64,000 nucleotides of DNA from Candidatus Thorarchaeota archaeon. GTDB lineage: Archaea > Asgardarchaeota > Thorarchaeia > Thorarchaeales > Thorarchaeaceae. Under the pieces are notes generated by a model. It did not search any database, was not told the origin of the DNA, and worked only from the letters and a program-made list of their open reading frames with translations. Position 1 is the first letter of the stretch. Each line of letters begins with the position of its first letter. The stretch covers positions 224,001-288,000 of the forward strand of contig RDOC01000001.1 of the NCBI GenBank assembly GCA_011364985.1, read 5' to 3'. Positions 13,048-54,202 of the stretch are shown here, piece by piece. Position numbers and translations under genes: made by a program.

Positions 13048-13160
13048 CTTGAGTTCACCCCAGGATTGGCCTATGAATCCATAACATATAGGCCTATTCC
13101 CTTTGAGAATTGCCTTTAGGTAGGTTTTTGAATCGGGACATAAGGAGTCAATTGAGTACA

Positions 13161-14534
<1,374 letters not shown>

Positions 14535-14543
14535 GGAGATATC

Positions 14544-14702
14544 TTGAGATTAGTAGAGGAGATTGACAGGGAAATCTGGAAAGGAAAAACAAAGATTCAC
14601 ATTCCGATGAACAGATTTAGCAAATGCAGCCAAGAAGAAAAGGAAGCCATAAAGCAGCTCTGCGTTGTCAATGGTGTTGAGCTTGTTCTAGATGCAAACT
14701 GA
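14544..14702 (+). CDS. Small hypothetical protein (52 aa)
   Basis: TTG start after GAGGAG, 9 bp after the glmM stop. Reads MRLVEEIDREIWKGKTKIHIPMNRFSKCSQEEKEAIKQLCVVNGVELVLDAN. Below the ORF-track cutoff. Confidence 0.6.
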   Translation: MRLVEEIDREIWKGKTKIHIPMNRFSKCSQEEKEAIKQLCVVNGVELVLDAN

Positions 14703-14783
14703 CAAAATGAGGCGATAGGTAGTATCCAGATAATCTTTATAGATAAACCAGAAGAAATTGTGATCACATCAGAGGTCAATGAC

Positions 14784-15182
14784 ATGAGTGAAAAAGGCGA
14801 CGACTTTATCATGGATGAGTTTGAGTGGGCACTGAAGGATCCCACCGAAGAGAAACTGAGAGCCTTGGGTGAAGTCGTCAGTATAATAACCAGTAAGCTC
14901 ACTGAAGCGATAAGTAAGTTACAACAAGATGTCTACGACCTCCAAGACAAGCTCTCGAAGGTGGAATCAAATCTAGGTGCCAAAATCATCTCACTTGAGA
15001 AGGGTGTAGCAAGTGGTGGAGCTATTGTTAGCGCACCTTCACCAGCAGCTGAGGCAGATAGCTCTGCAGCACCAATCGCACAAGCACCACCACCCAAAGC
15101 GCCTTCTGGTCCGGGAGGTATGATGGGCGAGCTTAAGGCATTGCTAGCCGCACGACGAAAGAAAGCGGAGTCCGGTGAATAG
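14784..15182 (+). CDS. Coiled-coil + Ala/Pro-rich linker + C-terminal Ena/VASP FAB-like (WH2-like) motif protein
   Basis: Heptad region LTEAISKLQQDVYDLQDKLSKVESNL, linker APSPAAEADSSAAPIAQAPPPKAP, tail GPGGMMGELKALLAARRKKAESGE. The gene is well supported; the function is inferred. Confidence 0.7.
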   Translation: MSEKGDDFIMDEFEWALKDPTEEKLRALGEVVSIITSKLTEAISKLQQDVYDLQDKLSKVESNLGAKIISLEKGVASGGAIVSAPSPAAEADSSAAPIAQAPPPKAPSGPGGMMGELKALLAARRKKAESGE

Positions 15183-15191
15183 CAGGGTATT

Positions 15192-15860
15192 TTAGAGCAG
15201 AAGATCAACGCTGTTTTGAGGATAGAAAGGACCAGCATGTGTTGGCAATGAGATTGTAAAGGCCTCGGCCCTCTCACAGGCAGCCTGAACCCCTCGTAGT
15301 CGTGTCCTAACATCATATAGCTTCGCATAGTAGTTGTTGGCCTTGGCTATTTGCGACTTATGTTGAGCCAGTGCCTTCAGAACGAAGGTGTGGGTTCCTG
15401 TTGTGTCAACATGGAGATGTGGACGAGGCAGAAGACTATTTACTTCCATGTGAAGGATTTTGTCCACACGATGTGCATTATCAAAAATCGTTGAATGTGA
15501 AGCCCATTCAACAGCCTGCTCAACCAGGGCTGAGCACTCGACATGGTTGCGATTATAGTCCTCTCCAGAATGAGTTATTACAATCTTTGGATGCGACTTG
15601 AGAATAGCTCCAATCACCTCATTTTGAAGAGAGGAATCGATTGCAAAATCGTCGCGTTCGCTCAGATAGAGATTTCGAACCCCAAGTATACTGCACGCGG
15701 CTTTCAATTCTTCATTGCGCGATTCGTTGCCTGTCATGCAATGTACATCCACAGGTATACCTCCCTCAACGTGTTTTCGAATTGTACCACCTGCCCCCAA
15801 AGTTTCGTCATCTGGATGAGCTGCAACAACAAGCAACCCATGCGCCGCAGTCTTGCTCAT
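15192..15860 (-). CDS. bshB: PIG-L/LmbE-family deacetylase, BshB-like
   Basis: AAHPDDE.LGAGGT metal motif, ELKAAC.ILG, ALAQHKSQ, RG.Q....AEAF. Divergent from bshA. Confidence 0.75.
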   Translation of the reverse strand: MSKTAAHGLLVVAAHPDDETLGAGGTIRKHVEGGIPVDVHCMTGNESRNEELKAACSILGVRNLYLSERDDFAIDSSLQNEVIGAILKSHPKIVITHSGEDYNRNHVECSALVEQAVEWASHSTIFDNAHRVDKILHMEVNSLLPRPHLHVDTTGTHTFVLKALAQHKSQIAKANNYYAKLYDVRTRLRGVQAACERAEAFTISLPTHAGPFYPQNSVDLLL

Positions 15861-15985
15861 GTATTGACCAGCGCCGCGGTGACTAATCAAGCTTTGGCAC
15901 TGATTATTGAGCGCAGAAGGAGAGTTTTAAGTTGTAACCAAATATCCTAAGGCAGCAGCAGTTGATCCCTAGGAAGGTGTGTTAT

Positions 15986-17158
15986 TTGCATATTGCAGTG
16001 AATCTTTATCCCTCAGTGGGAGGCTCAGGCCATCTAGCTACAAGACTTGGTCAACACTTGGCGCACAAGGGTCATAGTATCCACTTCATCACTTATCAGA
16101 GACCTTTCTCTTTGATGTGGGAACAGACAAGAGGTGTTTATGTTGATCTTGTTGATAGATTTGATTATCCGCTGTTCAGAGCGGTGGGTCCACCTTACAC
16201 TATGGCCTTGACATCAAAGATGGTCAAGGTCATCTCAGATTCTAAGCTTGACCTGATACATTCACATTATGCCATTCCTCATGCAATGGCAGCTTACATG
16301 ACCAGAGAAATAACTGGAACGCCCTATGTCATCACGCTTCATGGGTCAGATGTGCATTCTCTAGGACTAGACCCAGCATATCAGCCGGTGGTAAAACACA
16401 CCGTAGAGAAAGCAAACGCAGTCACAGCAGTTTCCCAGTTCTTGAAAGACCAAGCTCATAAGAAGCTCGGTATTGAGAGAGAAATCAAGGTCATTCCCAA
16501 CTTCATCGATGTAGAGCGCTTTGTTCATCTTACAGGAACGCGATTAATTGTTGAAAGCGGCTGCGTTGGTTTGCGGAGTGAAGAAGAAGCCAAGGCAATC
16601 AATCCCGACGAGAAGGTTCTGTTACATGCCTCCAACTTCCGCGAAGTCAAGAGAGTTGTCGAGCTTGTTGATATAATGCGGATTGTCGTCGACCATTATC
16701 CGAATGTCCGGCTCATAATCGCTGGAGATGGACCAACTCGTATTGAGGTTGAAAGAAAAATCGAAGCGTTGGACTTATGCAACCACATACATTTGCTAGG
16801 CGTAAAGAGCAATATGCAGCAAATAATGTGCTCAGCTGATGCGTTTCTCCTGAATTCGACTCTGGAAGGAATGCCTTTGGTTCTACTTGAGGCAATGTCA
16901 TGTAAACTGCCTGTTGTTACAACTCCAGCAGGGGGCATTCCAGAACTGGTAAGACCCGGTAAGGACGGTATTGTAACTAGAGGATTCGAACAAGAGGAGT
17001 ACGCAGAGGCAGTCATAGATGTCCTTGAGAATGATTCGCTTAGAAAGGAGCTGGGAGAGGCTGGACGGAAAAGGGTCATAGACAGTTACTCATCAAACAG
17101 AATAGTTCCTATGTATGAGAAGGTATTTCAAGAGGTACTAGAAGAGCAGGAGGCCTAA
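15986..17158 (+). CDS. bshA: N-acetyl-alpha-D-glucosaminyl L-malate synthase (GT4)
   Basis: YPSVGGSG..AT.LG..LA.KGH.IHFIT, PPY..AL.SK, HSHYAIPHA, TLHGSD...LG.DP, HASNFREVKRV and LVLLEAM follow the BshA signature closely. TTG start after AGGTG. Confidence 0.9.
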   Translation: MHIAVNLYPSVGGSGHLATRLGQHLAHKGHSIHFITYQRPFSLMWEQTRGVYVDLVDRFDYPLFRAVGPPYTMALTSKMVKVISDSKLDLIHSHYAIPHAMAAYMTREITGTPYVITLHGSDVHSLGLDPAYQPVVKHTVEKANAVTAVSQFLKDQAHKKLGIEREIKVIPNFIDVERFVHLTGTRLIVESGCVGLRSEEEAKAINPDEKVLLHASNFREVKRVVELVDIMRIVVDHYPNVRLIIAGDGPTRIEVERKIEALDLCNHIHLLGVKSNMQQIMCSADAFLLNSTLEGMPLVLLEAMSCKLPVVTTPAGGIPELVRPGKDGIVTRGFEQEEYAEAVIDVLENDSLRKELGEAGRKRVIDSYSSNRIVPMYEKVFQEVLEEQEA

Positions 17159-17164
17159 GACCAG

Positions 17165-18871
17165 ATGGATACCTCAGTGACAAATGTCTACCATGATTTT
17201 ATCTGGAGAGGCACAATGAGCGAACTTGCTGCACAGCTGTATGACCTGCCGATAGTGACCCTTGGCGGTTTCAGAGAGAGTACCCAAAAGATTCTAGCAC
17301 GATACAGCGAAACCTCGTGGCACACCGAAGAAAGACGCAAGGAAGTGATTGACGCCCTTCTAAGAATCAATCGAGGCGTGGGAGCCCTAACACCAGAGGT
17401 GGAGGATACAATTCATAGGCTGTTCAACGGAGCAATTGAAGCAGCACATCAGTCAGTTGTTATGGGCGGTCCAGGATATGTATTGAATAAAGCTGCAGTA
17501 GCGCATAGAATTGCTCTTCTGAACTCTAACCAAGAAAGCCCGCTTGGTTGTTTCTTTTGCGTAGCAGATTATGATATTGTTCAGACTGAACTCACTAACA
17601 TCAGAACTCCGAATATGGGACAAGAAGGAACTCTGATCAACATGCCAGTTTCAGGGGAATATGAACATTCTCCAGTCAGTGCCATTCCTCTTCCACGCAC
17701 AGGTTGGTACTCACAGGTTGAAGAGAACATCCGATCGAACTACCATCCAATATTCAAGGAACTTGAGGGGAGTACAAGAACGCTTATGGAAGAACGGCTT
17801 GAACAGGCTCTCTCTGTCACTCGTTGGGCATATAGGAACTCAAATACTATCGGTGAATGGGCCACAAGAATCCTTGGTCGACTATTCAACATCGAAGGCA
17901 ATTTGGGAATTCCATTGCTGCCCGCCTCAGATTCCGCAATCAGAAGCCTTCTTGTAGAGGGATTTGAGTTTCTTCTCGCAGAAGAAAACAGGACTCGATT
18001 TGTCAAATCCCATAATGAGTCAACAGACAAGATCAGATCTCACGGGATGAATCCCGGAAGTACTGAGAGAAATGACTCATATGTTCCTTTCTTCTATGAG
18101 TGTCCGAACAAGGGCTGTCACCGTGCAAGAACTGAGCTATATTATGACCAGAAAGGGAATTTGGCGACTCTATCAGGCAAGTGTCCGCAGTGTGGAGAAA
18201 GAATAGAAATAGAGATCAACGTAGACCATCCATCTCTTGCAGAACATTCTGAATGGATGTCACCTAGAGTGGACTCCAGGCAGATTGTAATCGATACCTT
18301 GCTTCCAGTAGTGACACATGTTGGTGGTGGTGGAGAGACTGCGTACTATGCTCAAGTCATCCCAGCAGCTCGAGCGCTTAGAATTCCATTTCCTGCATTC
18401 GTAAAATATCCCAGGGTCTATTTCAACACTCCGTGGAATGAAGCACTTGCTAAGCAGTTGCTGGAAAAGGAGCTCACTCCAATCCAGCGACAGGACATGT
18501 TCAAATTGACAGGCAAGATAGCAAGATTCAGAAGAAAGAACAGATTCGAGGAAATGAACAAAACCGTAGAGGAGTTTGGAAAATTCCTTCTCGAATCCCA
18601 TTCGCAGCTGAAGAAAGAGCTCGAAGAAGTCTCAGCAACGCTTCAAAAATCACCTACGGATGAACTTCGATTCACTCGTCTCGATATTGAGAGATACTTA
18701 AGCTGGGCATACGGCGAATATACTGAGGACAAGATGGGGCAGGAGGTTTCATGGTCATGGATAGAATGGTCTCTTAATTCCAGTTTCCCAGATCTCTTTG
18801 GGCCTTATGCCCGAGCCTATGTTCCCGAGATGAAGAATGGTGCAACCCTGTTTATCAACTTCATAGTCTAG
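17165..18871 (+). CDS. bshC: Bacillithiol biosynthesis BshC-like putative cysteine ligase
   Basis: AAHQ...MGGP.Y.LNK (cf. GQQ..L.TGP.Y..HK), ADYD, SPRVDSR (cf. SPNV..RP), LLP...VGGGGETAYYAQ (cf. GPGE..Y), YPR and a C-terminal helical/coiled-coil region. Starts 6 bp after bshA. Confidence 0.8.
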   Translation: MDTSVTNVYHDFIWRGTMSELAAQLYDLPIVTLGGFRESTQKILARYSETSWHTEERRKEVIDALLRINRGVGALTPEVEDTIHRLFNGAIEAAHQSVVMGGPGYVLNKAAVAHRIALLNSNQESPLGCFFCVADYDIVQTELTNIRTPNMGQEGTLINMPVSGEYEHSPVSAIPLPRTGWYSQVEENIRSNYHPIFKELEGSTRTLMEERLEQALSVTRWAYRNSNTIGEWATRILGRLFNIEGNLGIPLLPASDSAIRSLLVEGFEFLLAEENRTRFVKSHNESTDKIRSHGMNPGSTERNDSYVPFFYECPNKGCHRARTELYYDQKGNLATLSGKCPQCGERIEIEINVDHPSLAEHSEWMSPRVDSRQIVIDTLLPVVTHVGGGGETAYYAQVIPAARALRIPFPAFVKYPRVYFNTPWNEALAKQLLEKELTPIQRQDMFKLTGKIARFRRKNRFEEMNKTVEEFGKFLLESHSQLKKELEEVSATLQKSPTDELRFTRLDIERYLSWAYGEYTEDKMGQEVSWSWIEWSLNSSFPDLFGPYARAYVPEMKNGATLFINFIV

Positions 18872-52753: not shown

Positions 52754-54202
52754 ATGGCAATTGAGAAACGCAACCGAACCAAAATTGTATGTACCATAGG
52801 GCCGGCCTCAAGGTCCGGAGAAACCCTAGCAAGAATGATTGAGGCAGGTATGGATGTTGCACGACTCAACCTGTCCCATGATACTCATGCAATCCACAGA
52901 AAGACCTTCGAAACCATTAGGTCAGTCGACGATTCGATCCCGATTCTATTTGATATTCAAGGCCCGAAGATCAGGATAGGCGATATGAAAAAGGCAGTAG
53001 AACTGCAGACAGGGGATTCCTTCACGTTATCAATCAAGGACTTTGTTGGGAACAGAGAGCGAGCATCAATATCGCACAAGGACCTTCCGAGGGATGTGAA
53101 ACCTGGGGATGTCATAGCTATCAATGATGGGATTGTAAGACTCAGGGTTAAGGAGATTGATGATGATGAGGTGCGTACTGAGATAACGCACGGTGGTCCC
53201 ATCTCAAGCAGAAAAGGAGTGAATGTACCAGGAATACGATTGTCTTGTGGAGTGCCAACAGAGAAAGACCTGAAGGACTTGGACCTCGCAGCTGAACTGG
53301 AGCCCGATCTAATTGCCATCTCCTTTGTTGTTGACGAGAACGACGTGAGACGCGTCAATAAGATTCTGAAATCGAATGGACCAAAGAATGTCGATGTGAT
53401 AAGCAAGATTGAGCATACTTTGGCTGTAAAGAATTATCCCGCCATTCTTGAGGAGTCACATGGTGTGATGATTGCCCGTGGTGATCTGGGTATAGAAGTT
53501 CCAATTGAAGAGGTCCCGATTCTTCAAAGAGACCTGATTCGCGAGGCAAACATGTGGGCTCGAGCAGCTATAGTTGCAACGCACATGCTGGAATCAATGA
53601 TACATGAGCAGATGCCCACCAGAGCTGAAGTAAGTGATGTTGCCCACGCCGTTTTTGATAGAGCAGATGCAGTGATGCTCAGTGGCGAAACGGCCATTGG
53701 ACACGATCCTGTTGGCGCCATTGAAATGATGAAACGCGTCGCAGGAAGGGCCGAGAAACGAATTACTCCCATCAAACCAGATGATATCACATCGCCAAAG
53801 AAGCTTATTGTGGAGGTCATAGGCAGCCTTGTCTACAATACAGTGGCCCTTCTTCCCGACAAGATTGGCGGGGTGATTACTGCAACCAGAAGCGGATTCA
53901 CAGCAAGATGGATCTCAAAGTTCAGACCACCCACGAACATCTATGCAGTCACCAACGATCCAGCAGTCGTAAGGCGACTTAGACTCTGGTGGGGTGTGTA
54001 TCCTGTGAAATACGACCAGGACATCCAAAGCGTTGATGACTTGGTTATGGAGGCAGTTTGCGCAGCCCATGAAAGAGAACTCATCAGTATAGACAAGGAT
54101 GTCGTATTCACATCTGGAGTGAGGCACATCCCTGGAAAGACTAATGTTGTTGGAGTGTTTCATGTGCGCGATCTGGTACAACTCCCCAAGTCTAGATACT
54201 GA
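52754..54202 (+). CDS. pyk: Pyruvate kinase
   Basis: TKIVCTIGPAS, ARLNLSH, GPKIR, KGVNVPG, SKIE, MIARGDLG, PTRAEVSDVA, MLSGETA. Confidence 0.97.
   Translation: MAIEKRNRTKIVCTIGPASRSGETLARMIEAGMDVARLNLSHDTHAIHRKTFETIRSVDDSIPILFDIQGPKIRIGDMKKAVELQTGDSFTLSIKDFVGNRERASISHKDLPRDVKPGDVIAINDGIVRLRVKEIDDDEVRTEITHGGPISSRKGVNVPGIRLSCGVPTEKDLKDLDLAAELEPDLIAISFVVDENDVRRVNKILKSNGPKNVDVISKIEHTLAVKNYPAILEESHGVMIARGDLGIEVPIEEVPILQRDLIREANMWARAAIVATHMLESMIHEQMPTRAEVSDVAHAVFDRADAVMLSGETAIGHDPVGAIEMMKRVAGRAEKRITPIKPDDITSPKKLIVEVIGSLVYNTVALLPDKIGGVITATRSGFTARWISKFRPPTNIYAVTNDPAVVRRLRLWWGVYPVKYDQDIQSVDDLVMEAVCAAHERELISIDKDVVFTSGVRHIPGKTNVVGVFHVRDLVQLPKSRY

Follow-up and report, generated by a model that had tools for sequence, protein, structure and literature searches.

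We found that P0001, a protein of 132 residues encoded in a 64,000-nt stretch of Thorarchaeota DNA (hereafter the window), is the Thorarchaeota (Thor) member of an unnamed Asgard family whose proteins possess a coiled coil, a proline-containing linker and a C-terminal tail with an E-L-K core. On sequence grounds, we consider it a credible and hitherto undescribed candidate for an actin-associated adaptor, its tail resembling the F-actin-binding (FAB) segment of human VASP; the preliminary description of the gene product as an Ena/VASP-like actin regulator is partly supported. As for the family itself, no published description was found in the literature on Asgard WH2, VASP, polyproline and proline-rich/coiled-coil proteins, which yielded only WH2-like motifs within Asgard gelsolins and statements placing Ena/VASP-type polymerases in the eukaryotic machinery.

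The features of the gene and its surroundings are collected in Table 1. A TTTATAG[CA] box precedes the orthologous gene in 11 of 11 Thor loci compared, at about 40–50 nt from the start codon in those with a clear start. Conservation of this TATA-like element implies that the P0001 gene possesses an archaeal promoter of its own and is more than the distal end of the operon that lies upstream. The GAGGT element favors the ATG at 14784 over an upstream GTG at position 14760, and the homologs in our alignment likewise start at M-S/G-x. The window occupies positions 224001-288000 of contig C11 in an assembly that is 1.70 Mb in size and 74% complete.

Table 1. Positions in the window of the P0001 gene, of the elements of its product and of the flanking genes.
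Feature	Position	Strand	Basis or remark
PGM/PMM-type phosphohexomutase	13110-14534	+	four Pfam domains; directly upstream
Archaeal TATA-box-like element TTTATAGA	14736..14743	+	sequence read; ~45 nt 5' of ATG
Shine-Dalgarno-like GAGGT	14772..14776	+	sequence read; 7 nt before ATG 14784
CDS of P0001, 132 aa + stop	14784..15182	+	ATG 14784, TAG 15180-15182; real gene
Conserved N-terminal motif, residues 7-36 DFIMDEFEWALKDPTEEKLRALGEVVSIIT	14802..14891	+	short helix, DPT turn, start of long helix
Long helix / heptad coiled coil, residues 22-76	14847..15011	+	AF2 helix, heptad test
Perfect a/d heptad window, residues 37-64	14892-14975	+	heptad test
Disordered Ala/Pro/Ser/Gly linker, residues 77-112	15012..15119	+	low pLDDT, composition
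APPPKAP, residues 101-107	15084-15104	+	inside linker
24-residue tail GPGGMMGELKALLAARRKKAESGE	15108-15179	+	last 24 residues of P0001
C-terminal putative docking helix and basic cluster, residues 113-127 MMGELKALLAARRKK	15120..15164	+	conservation, AF2
Bacillithiol-type cluster: PIG-L-type deacetylase (-), GT4 glycosyltransferase, BshC-like gene	15192-18871		

The tail, the APPPKAP stretch and the N-terminal heptad coiled coil named in the preliminary description are all present in the letters and positions given there, and the three-part architecture it proposed is borne out by the AlphaFold2 (AF2) helices, the disordered linker and the heptad test. The AF2 model, for which a 31-sequence alignment served as input, places helices at residues 3–18, 22–76 and, at the terminus, 114–129, with a pLDDT of >90 at residues 31–60 and up to 94 in the long helix, while residues 78–111 appear disordered (pLDDT <50). 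The score of the perfect heptad window was matched by none of 2000 shuffles, and the hydrophobic periodicity peaks at 3.5–3.6, although the coil sequence itself varies among homologs. The 36-residue linker is composed largely of alanine (10), proline (8), serine (6) and glycine (5); within it P97, A101 and P102 are near-invariant among the Thor homologs (alignment A1).

Conservation is concentrated at the two ends of the protein. Across 31 Thor-type sequences there is little or no variation in the N-terminal EFEWAL.DPTEEKLR.LGEVVSIIT or in the tail MMGELK.LLAARR.K, whose helix and basic cluster (residues 113–127) are invariant, in contrast to the variable coil and linker. The ratios of nonsynonymous to synonymous differences among 20 Thor orthologs follow the same division: 0.19 for the N-terminal motif and 0.24 for the tail against 2.35 for the coil and 1.30 for the linker, i.e., a protein-level constraint 5–12 times stronger at the ends. 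Purifying selection thus acts strongly on the tail. Its conservation had been named beforehand as a test of the actin reading, and it is retained both in the Thor-type homologs and, as the E-L-K core, in all tails aligned (20 of 20 from several Asgard families, alignment A2).

Database searches place P0001 in a family of its own. At E ≤ 0.01 there are 224 homologs, almost all of which are annotated as "hypothetical protein" in Thorarchaeota MAGs, and an exhaustive phmmer search of 1.84 billion cluster representatives gave 11 matches, all family members and none eukaryotic. Searches of Pfam, NCBIfam and PDB sequences with P0001 returned only sub-threshold coiled-coil noise, and 10 non-Thor homologs had no significant Pfam match. 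In the ESM Atlas only unnamed clusters of the same family were found and the tail alone gave no usable match; Foldseek comparison of the AF2 model with the PDB retrieved only designed helical proteins (E > 3). Likewise, a profile search of the PDB with the tail found nothing related, the twinfilin-2 segment ELKEFFAKARAG at E = 2.6 being at chance level. When longer proteins carrying the family sequence were sought, no VASP appeared at E ≤ 10, and one family member with a long start call was retrieved.

Across the Asgard genomes, the full-length profile (A1) matches 183 of 301 and the tail profile 201 of 301. P0001 shows the features of the full-length profile, namely an N-terminal ..F...L..DP..EK...LG.. 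helix, a coiled coil and a Pro-containing linker, and its C-terminus agrees with the family pattern h-h-G-E-L-K-x-L-[LF]-x-x-R-[RK]. Within the Thor family the tail profile is found in 73 of 76 genomes, in a single copy each and always in a frame of 130–160 aa. In other families, given here by working labels, it is present in f9 (65/68 genomes), f24 (7/7), f19 (5/6), f7 (5/5) and f12 (17/19), and none was found in f5 (0/28), f27 (0/11), f20 (0/7) or f17 (0/5). One short contig of family f30 (genome G297) carries tandem paralogs at L036:85-519 (-) and L036:599-973 (-), both with intact tails.

The non-Thor homologs retain the same architecture with a tail of the form P.SLRGAIMGELK.LFAKRKK, and the N-terminal motif is recognizable in them, as well as in the GTPase fusions described below, as ..DPT..K...LG... 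Their linkers contain true polyproline tracts such as GGPPGGPPGGPPPPPGG and APPPPPGAPPPPPGRP. In Loki-type members such polyproline stands directly before the tail, e.g., GGPPGGPPPPPGG and APPPPPGAPPPPPG; the APPPKAP of the Thor linker is replaced there by GPPGGPP or APPPPPG, canonical tracts of the (G/A)PPPPP type. The proline stretches that the preliminary description invoked for profilin recruitment occur in canonical form in the Loki-type homologs; the Thor protein itself offers PPP only.

The resemblance of the tail to VASP is confined to the FAB segment. This segment was quoted in the preliminary description as about half identical to the tail, and the quoted letters match residues 259–278 of human VASP as printed (PMC10340426). 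Aligned without gaps, 13 of 24 positions are identical and all hydrophobic positions are kept, which is a strong match to the FAB helix (h-M-x-E-h-x-A-h-L-A-x-R-R-K) at the level of a short motif. The last four letters of the 24-residue comparator lie beyond the printed residues, and we take them to be those of VASP. We slid this 24-mer over the 31,139 stop-to-stop frames (2.03 million residues) of the protein's own genome using ungapped BLOSUM62 scores: the tail obtained 66 and the runner-up window 34. With the 16-residue FAB core the same scan gave 45 for the tail and 28 for the next best window.

Profile scores agree with these scans. The HMM built from the 20 tails of several Asgard families (A2) scored the human FAB at 13.9 bits, which no FAB shuffle out of 5000 attained; in the genome, the highest-scoring frame from outside the family obtained 8.6 bits. 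A Thor-only tail profile also separated FAB from the best null (19.9 vs 12.2 bits), and a profile without Thor sequences still did so (10.1 vs 8.7 bits, reached by 1 of 5000 shuffles). The WH2-like GAB segment of VASP obtained only 0.1 bits. The difference between FAB and GAB, together with the shuffles, indicates that the likeness is specific to FAB and survives the control for composition. Extrapolation from the genome null gives about 0.03–0.14 expected equal matches per human-sized proteome, a value to be read with the selection of FAB as comparator after the resemblance had been noticed, and a match of 16–24 residues is too short for database-wide significance or for proof of homology. 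Within these bounds, the resemblance between the tail and FAB is real and specific, and suggestive as regards homology.

Cultured Asgard archaea crawl and form actin-dependent protrusions. The availability of actin and profilin, on which the actin reading relied, is confirmed for the genome of P0001, in which we located genes for an actin resembling those of eukaryotes (C11:432205-433308, 443 bits), for a gelsolin with two domains (C11:415877-416404) and, outside the window, for a pair of neighboring profilin paralogs (C18:53368-53742 and 53860-54201, both -). The profilins were detected through a Thor homolog matching PDB 7PBH and 5ZZA; the profilin profile of Pfam lacks the sensitivity needed and misses both of them as well as nearly all Thor profilins. 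Actin was found in 263 of 301 Asgard genomes, including families where no tail was found: f5 (actin in 28/28 genomes, tail in 0/28), f27 (8/11 vs 0/11) and f17 (5/5 vs 0/5). Since actin is near-universal and also present in families where no tail was found, the phyletic pattern neither supports nor excludes a link between the two.

In the literature found, profilins and gelsolins are the only named regulators of Asgard actin, and a single-copy family of 130–150 aa bears on the question of what nucleates, elongates or bundles Asgard actin filaments. The published text on the Lokiactin co-immunoprecipitation mentions BAR proteins, gelsolins, profilin and an Arf GTPase, and no P0001-like protein (PMC13716822). 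As for profilin recruitment, the profilins of Loki are reported not to bind polyproline, and that of Thor needs millimolar concentrations to bind a polyproline peptide of VASP (PMC8410842). It follows that the best proline tracts occur in lineages for which no reader of them is known, and that recruitment of profilin by the Thor protein, which has PPP only, is doubtful.

From the architecture and the conserved ends, a mode of action can be proposed. The coiled coil would assemble the protein into a dimer or a higher oligomer, in which several tails would be carried on flexible Ala/Pro-rich arms of ~35 residues. Each tail would dock on one conserved partner, most likely actin, in a FAB-like manner, i.e., through a hydrophobic helix face followed by R/K residues contacting the acidic surface of the filament. 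By carrying several such tails, the protein would tether, bundle or cap-protect filaments, and the polyproline ahead of the tail in Loki-type homologs could additionally feed profilin-actin. Because the proline part of the Thor protein is weak, filament binding or bundling is likelier there than processive elongation. Actin is favored as the partner by the FAB likeness, the Loki-type polyproline, the precedent of arcadin-2 (see below) and the enrichment of an Arf GTPase with Lokiactin. P0001 may accordingly be viewed, tentatively, as an oligomeric adaptor with FAB-like actin-docking tails and as a candidate actin regulator; that the tail itself docks on actin appears plausible, if somewhat short of probable.

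The genomic context of the gene is conserved within lineages. Of 15 Thor-family loci, drawn from many genera, 14 share the order PGM/PMM-type mutase gene (+), P0001 gene (+), bshB-like gene (-), then bshA-like and bshC-like genes. A 52-aa ORF at 14544-14702 is probably not a gene: Pfam gave no match for it, and tblastn found none in 14 orthologous loci (13 of the Thor family and one of a sister family). One public gene call, P0130 (472 aa, annotated as phosphomannomutase, on a 2.1-kb contig), joins the mutase domains and the family sequence and is probably a read-through or frameshift artefact involving the upstream mutase. In turn, the neighbors in Loki-type loci encode eRF1/pelota, a radical-SAM protein, a 206-aa helical protein, a ~590-aa protein without known family and an Elf1-type zinc ribbon. 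The 206-aa protein is rich in Lys and Glu, has no Pfam match (L027:6257-6874, +) and possesses orthologs in 9 loci; its gene adjoins the family gene on the same strand, upstream in f9 and downstream in part of f24, and BLAST found no counterpart in the Thor genome of the window. None of the Thor or Loki-type loci examined has a cytoskeletal or actin gene beside the family gene.

We found that in Loki-type genomes the module also occurs fused to small GTPases. The secondary, weaker matches of the tail profile there are C-termini of proteins of 407–549 aa: 14 such matches were listed in 41 Loki-type genomes, and all nine ORFs inspected encode GTPase proteins, with no gelsolin or profilin fusion among them, the remaining listed matches being mostly in frames of ~416–426 aa. 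In the middle of these proteins lies a G domain of the Arf or Gtr1-RagA type, scoring up to 83 bits with PF00025 and up to 94 bits with PF04670. The full family profile (A3) matches over the final ~100 residues with E-values of 1e-8 to 7e-15, and this part comprises the DPT..K..LG helix, a coiled coil, a Pro-rich linker and a ..ELKDLFAKRKK end. In an AF2 model of one fusion, based on a 9-sequence alignment, pLDDT ranged from 33 to 66 across the module. When the GTPase part of one protein was used as a query, no match was found in 5 Thor genomes (E ≤ 1e-5). One Loki-type genome encodes a 459-aa Rab-like GTPase protein (L069:1341-2717, +), in which PVSLRGAIMSELKQ lies internally at residues 221–246 and is followed by a long helical region. 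The C-terminal arms are not discussed in the preprint on Asgard Arf-type G domains (10.1101/2024.02.28.582541), and an Arf GTPase was enriched in the Lokiactin co-immunoprecipitation (PMC13716822). That other Asgard lineages have the module fused to Arf/Rag-like GTPases suggests a role for it as an output arm of small-GTPase signaling.

These fusions supply the main rival to the actin reading, a non-actin partner within the GTPase systems. The tail would then be a linear docking motif for another Asgard protein, such as a regulator or an effector of small GTPases, a protein of the roadblock/longin type or a factor involved in trafficking, and its FAB likeness would be convergent. That Arf/Rag-like GTPases of about 410–550 aa carry the full module as a C-terminal arm speaks for such an adaptor, as do the internal copy in the Rab-like L069 protein, where the sequence behaves as a portable linear motif, and the lack of cytoskeletal synteny and of a tight co-distribution with actin. 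Yet it comes with no candidate partner, and it leaves unexplained why the tail is the best match in its genome to an actin-binding motif and why polyproline of the profilin-binding type stands before it; moreover, a link with Arf-type GTPases is itself compatible with control of actin. We regard this alternative as possible but rather unlikely.

A second alternative is that the terminal helix with its RRKK cluster binds anionic archaeal membranes, in the way of the membrane-targeting helices of MinD/FtsA or Arf, with coil and linker serving as an anchored spacer. Membrane-targeting sequences indeed usually consist of a helix and a basic cluster that follow a flexible linker at the extreme C-terminus, the fused GTPases are without the N-terminal amphipathic helix that defines Arf, which makes a C-terminal anchor plausible, and archaeal-type lipids permit amphipathic helices (preprint 10.1101/2024.02.28.582541). 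However, the helical hydrophobic moment of the tail is low (0.08 for the 15-mer, 0.19–0.22 for sub-windows, compared with 0.19 for VASP FAB), and P0001 is acidic overall, with a net charge of -5. In addition, individual residues including G115 and E116 are invariant or nearly so across several Asgard families, which is unusual for lipid-binding helices, whose character is conserved and not their sequence. The invariant acidic E116 and the low hydrophobic moment are more in keeping with a specific contact to a protein than with binding of lipid, and we consider a membrane tether improbable.

Asgard archaea have ESCRT-III and Vps4, and the outline of ESCRT-III, too, comprises a helical N-terminal core, a flexible Pro-containing linker and a short C-terminal helix, but a role of the tail as an ESCRT-type MIM recruiting Vps4 can be dismissed as very improbable, since the tail misfits the MIM1 pattern (D/E)xxLxxRLxxL(K/R) in every register and has basic residues in place of the acidic ones of MIM1, the tail profile scores nothing else in the genome, ESCRT-III tails included, above 8.6 bits, and P0001 has no Snf7 match in Pfam.

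Returning to an actin-docking tail, its consequences would reach beyond the Thor protein. Were actin binding to hold, the design of polyproline plus actin-binding helix would predate eukaryogenesis and would be linked to small-GTPase control; were it to fail, the tail would represent a new docking motif of Asgard GTPase systems. A further step, which we consider doubtful, would be to see in the family a missing Asgard factor of filament assembly or bundling, welded to GTPases in some lineages and a pre-eukaryotic counterpart, or even the ancestor, of the combination of polyproline with WH2/FAB on which VASP, WASP and formins rely.

Human VASP comprises an EVH1 domain, a proline-rich region and an EVH2 domain with GAB (residues 223–239), FAB (259–278) and a tetramerizing coiled coil (343–380) (PMC10340426). 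P0001 is similar to it in having a FAB-like helix with an R/K cluster, a Pro-containing flexible region just before it and a coiled coil in the same chain, and its Loki-type relatives add (G/A)PPPPP repeats like those of the VASP proline-rich region. In contrast, its coiled coil is N-terminal and built of ordinary heptads, while VASP_tetra is C-terminal and right-handed, and P0001 has 132 residues against 380 of VASP, with no detectable homology beyond the motif of 16–24 residues. Pfam gave no EVH1 (WH1) match at E ≤ 10, the N-terminus being a 76-residue helical segment, and no match to VASP_tetra (PF08776); GAB, KLRK and LKKV motifs are absent from P0001, as is a (G/A)PPPPP region, for which there is APPPKAP only. 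Membership in Ena/VASP is rejected given the absence of EVH1, GAB and the VASP tetramerization domain, and P0001 would function, at most, in the manner of the FAB-plus-oligomerizer half of an EVH2 domain.

Membership in the WH2 family is not supported either. Neither P0001 nor the 10 non-Thor homologs match PF02205 at E ≤ 10, and no LKK[TV] is present. Homology with EVH2 cannot be demonstrated. What P0001 shares with WH2 proteins (PF02205; WASP, WAVE, WIP, thymosin beta-4) is a short helix of amphipathic character with basic residues behind it, in many cases preceded by polyproline. The helix of WH2 has the consensus R-x-x-L-L-x-x-I-R/K, which the Loki-type R-G-A-I-M-x-E-L-K parallels; the difference lies in the LKK[TV] that follows the helix break in WH2 and is missing from P0001. 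A WASP-like acidic/Trp reading of the N-terminal DEFEW was set aside, the Trp being Thor-specific.

A further comparison is with arcadin-2 of Pyrobaculum (PDB 5LY3), which regulates crenactin solely via a 17-residue C-terminal helix bound in a hydrophobic groove (PMC5173319). It is an archaeal protein that contacts actin by a short helix at its extreme C-terminus, so that such a mode exists in archaea. The two proteins differ in that arcadin-2 is encoded in the actin (arcade) cluster, makes a tryptophan-centered contact and sequesters monomers, while the P0001 gene is not beside actin, and the PDB profile search detected no similarity between them. In turn, with the C-terminal arms of the Asgard Arf/Rag-like GTPases (about 410–550 aa) P0001 shares true homology over the entire module, the Thor protein differing from them in being free-standing. 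Finally, the order of polyproline and then tail in the non-Thor homologs is the order seen in VASP, WASP and the FH1 regions of formins.
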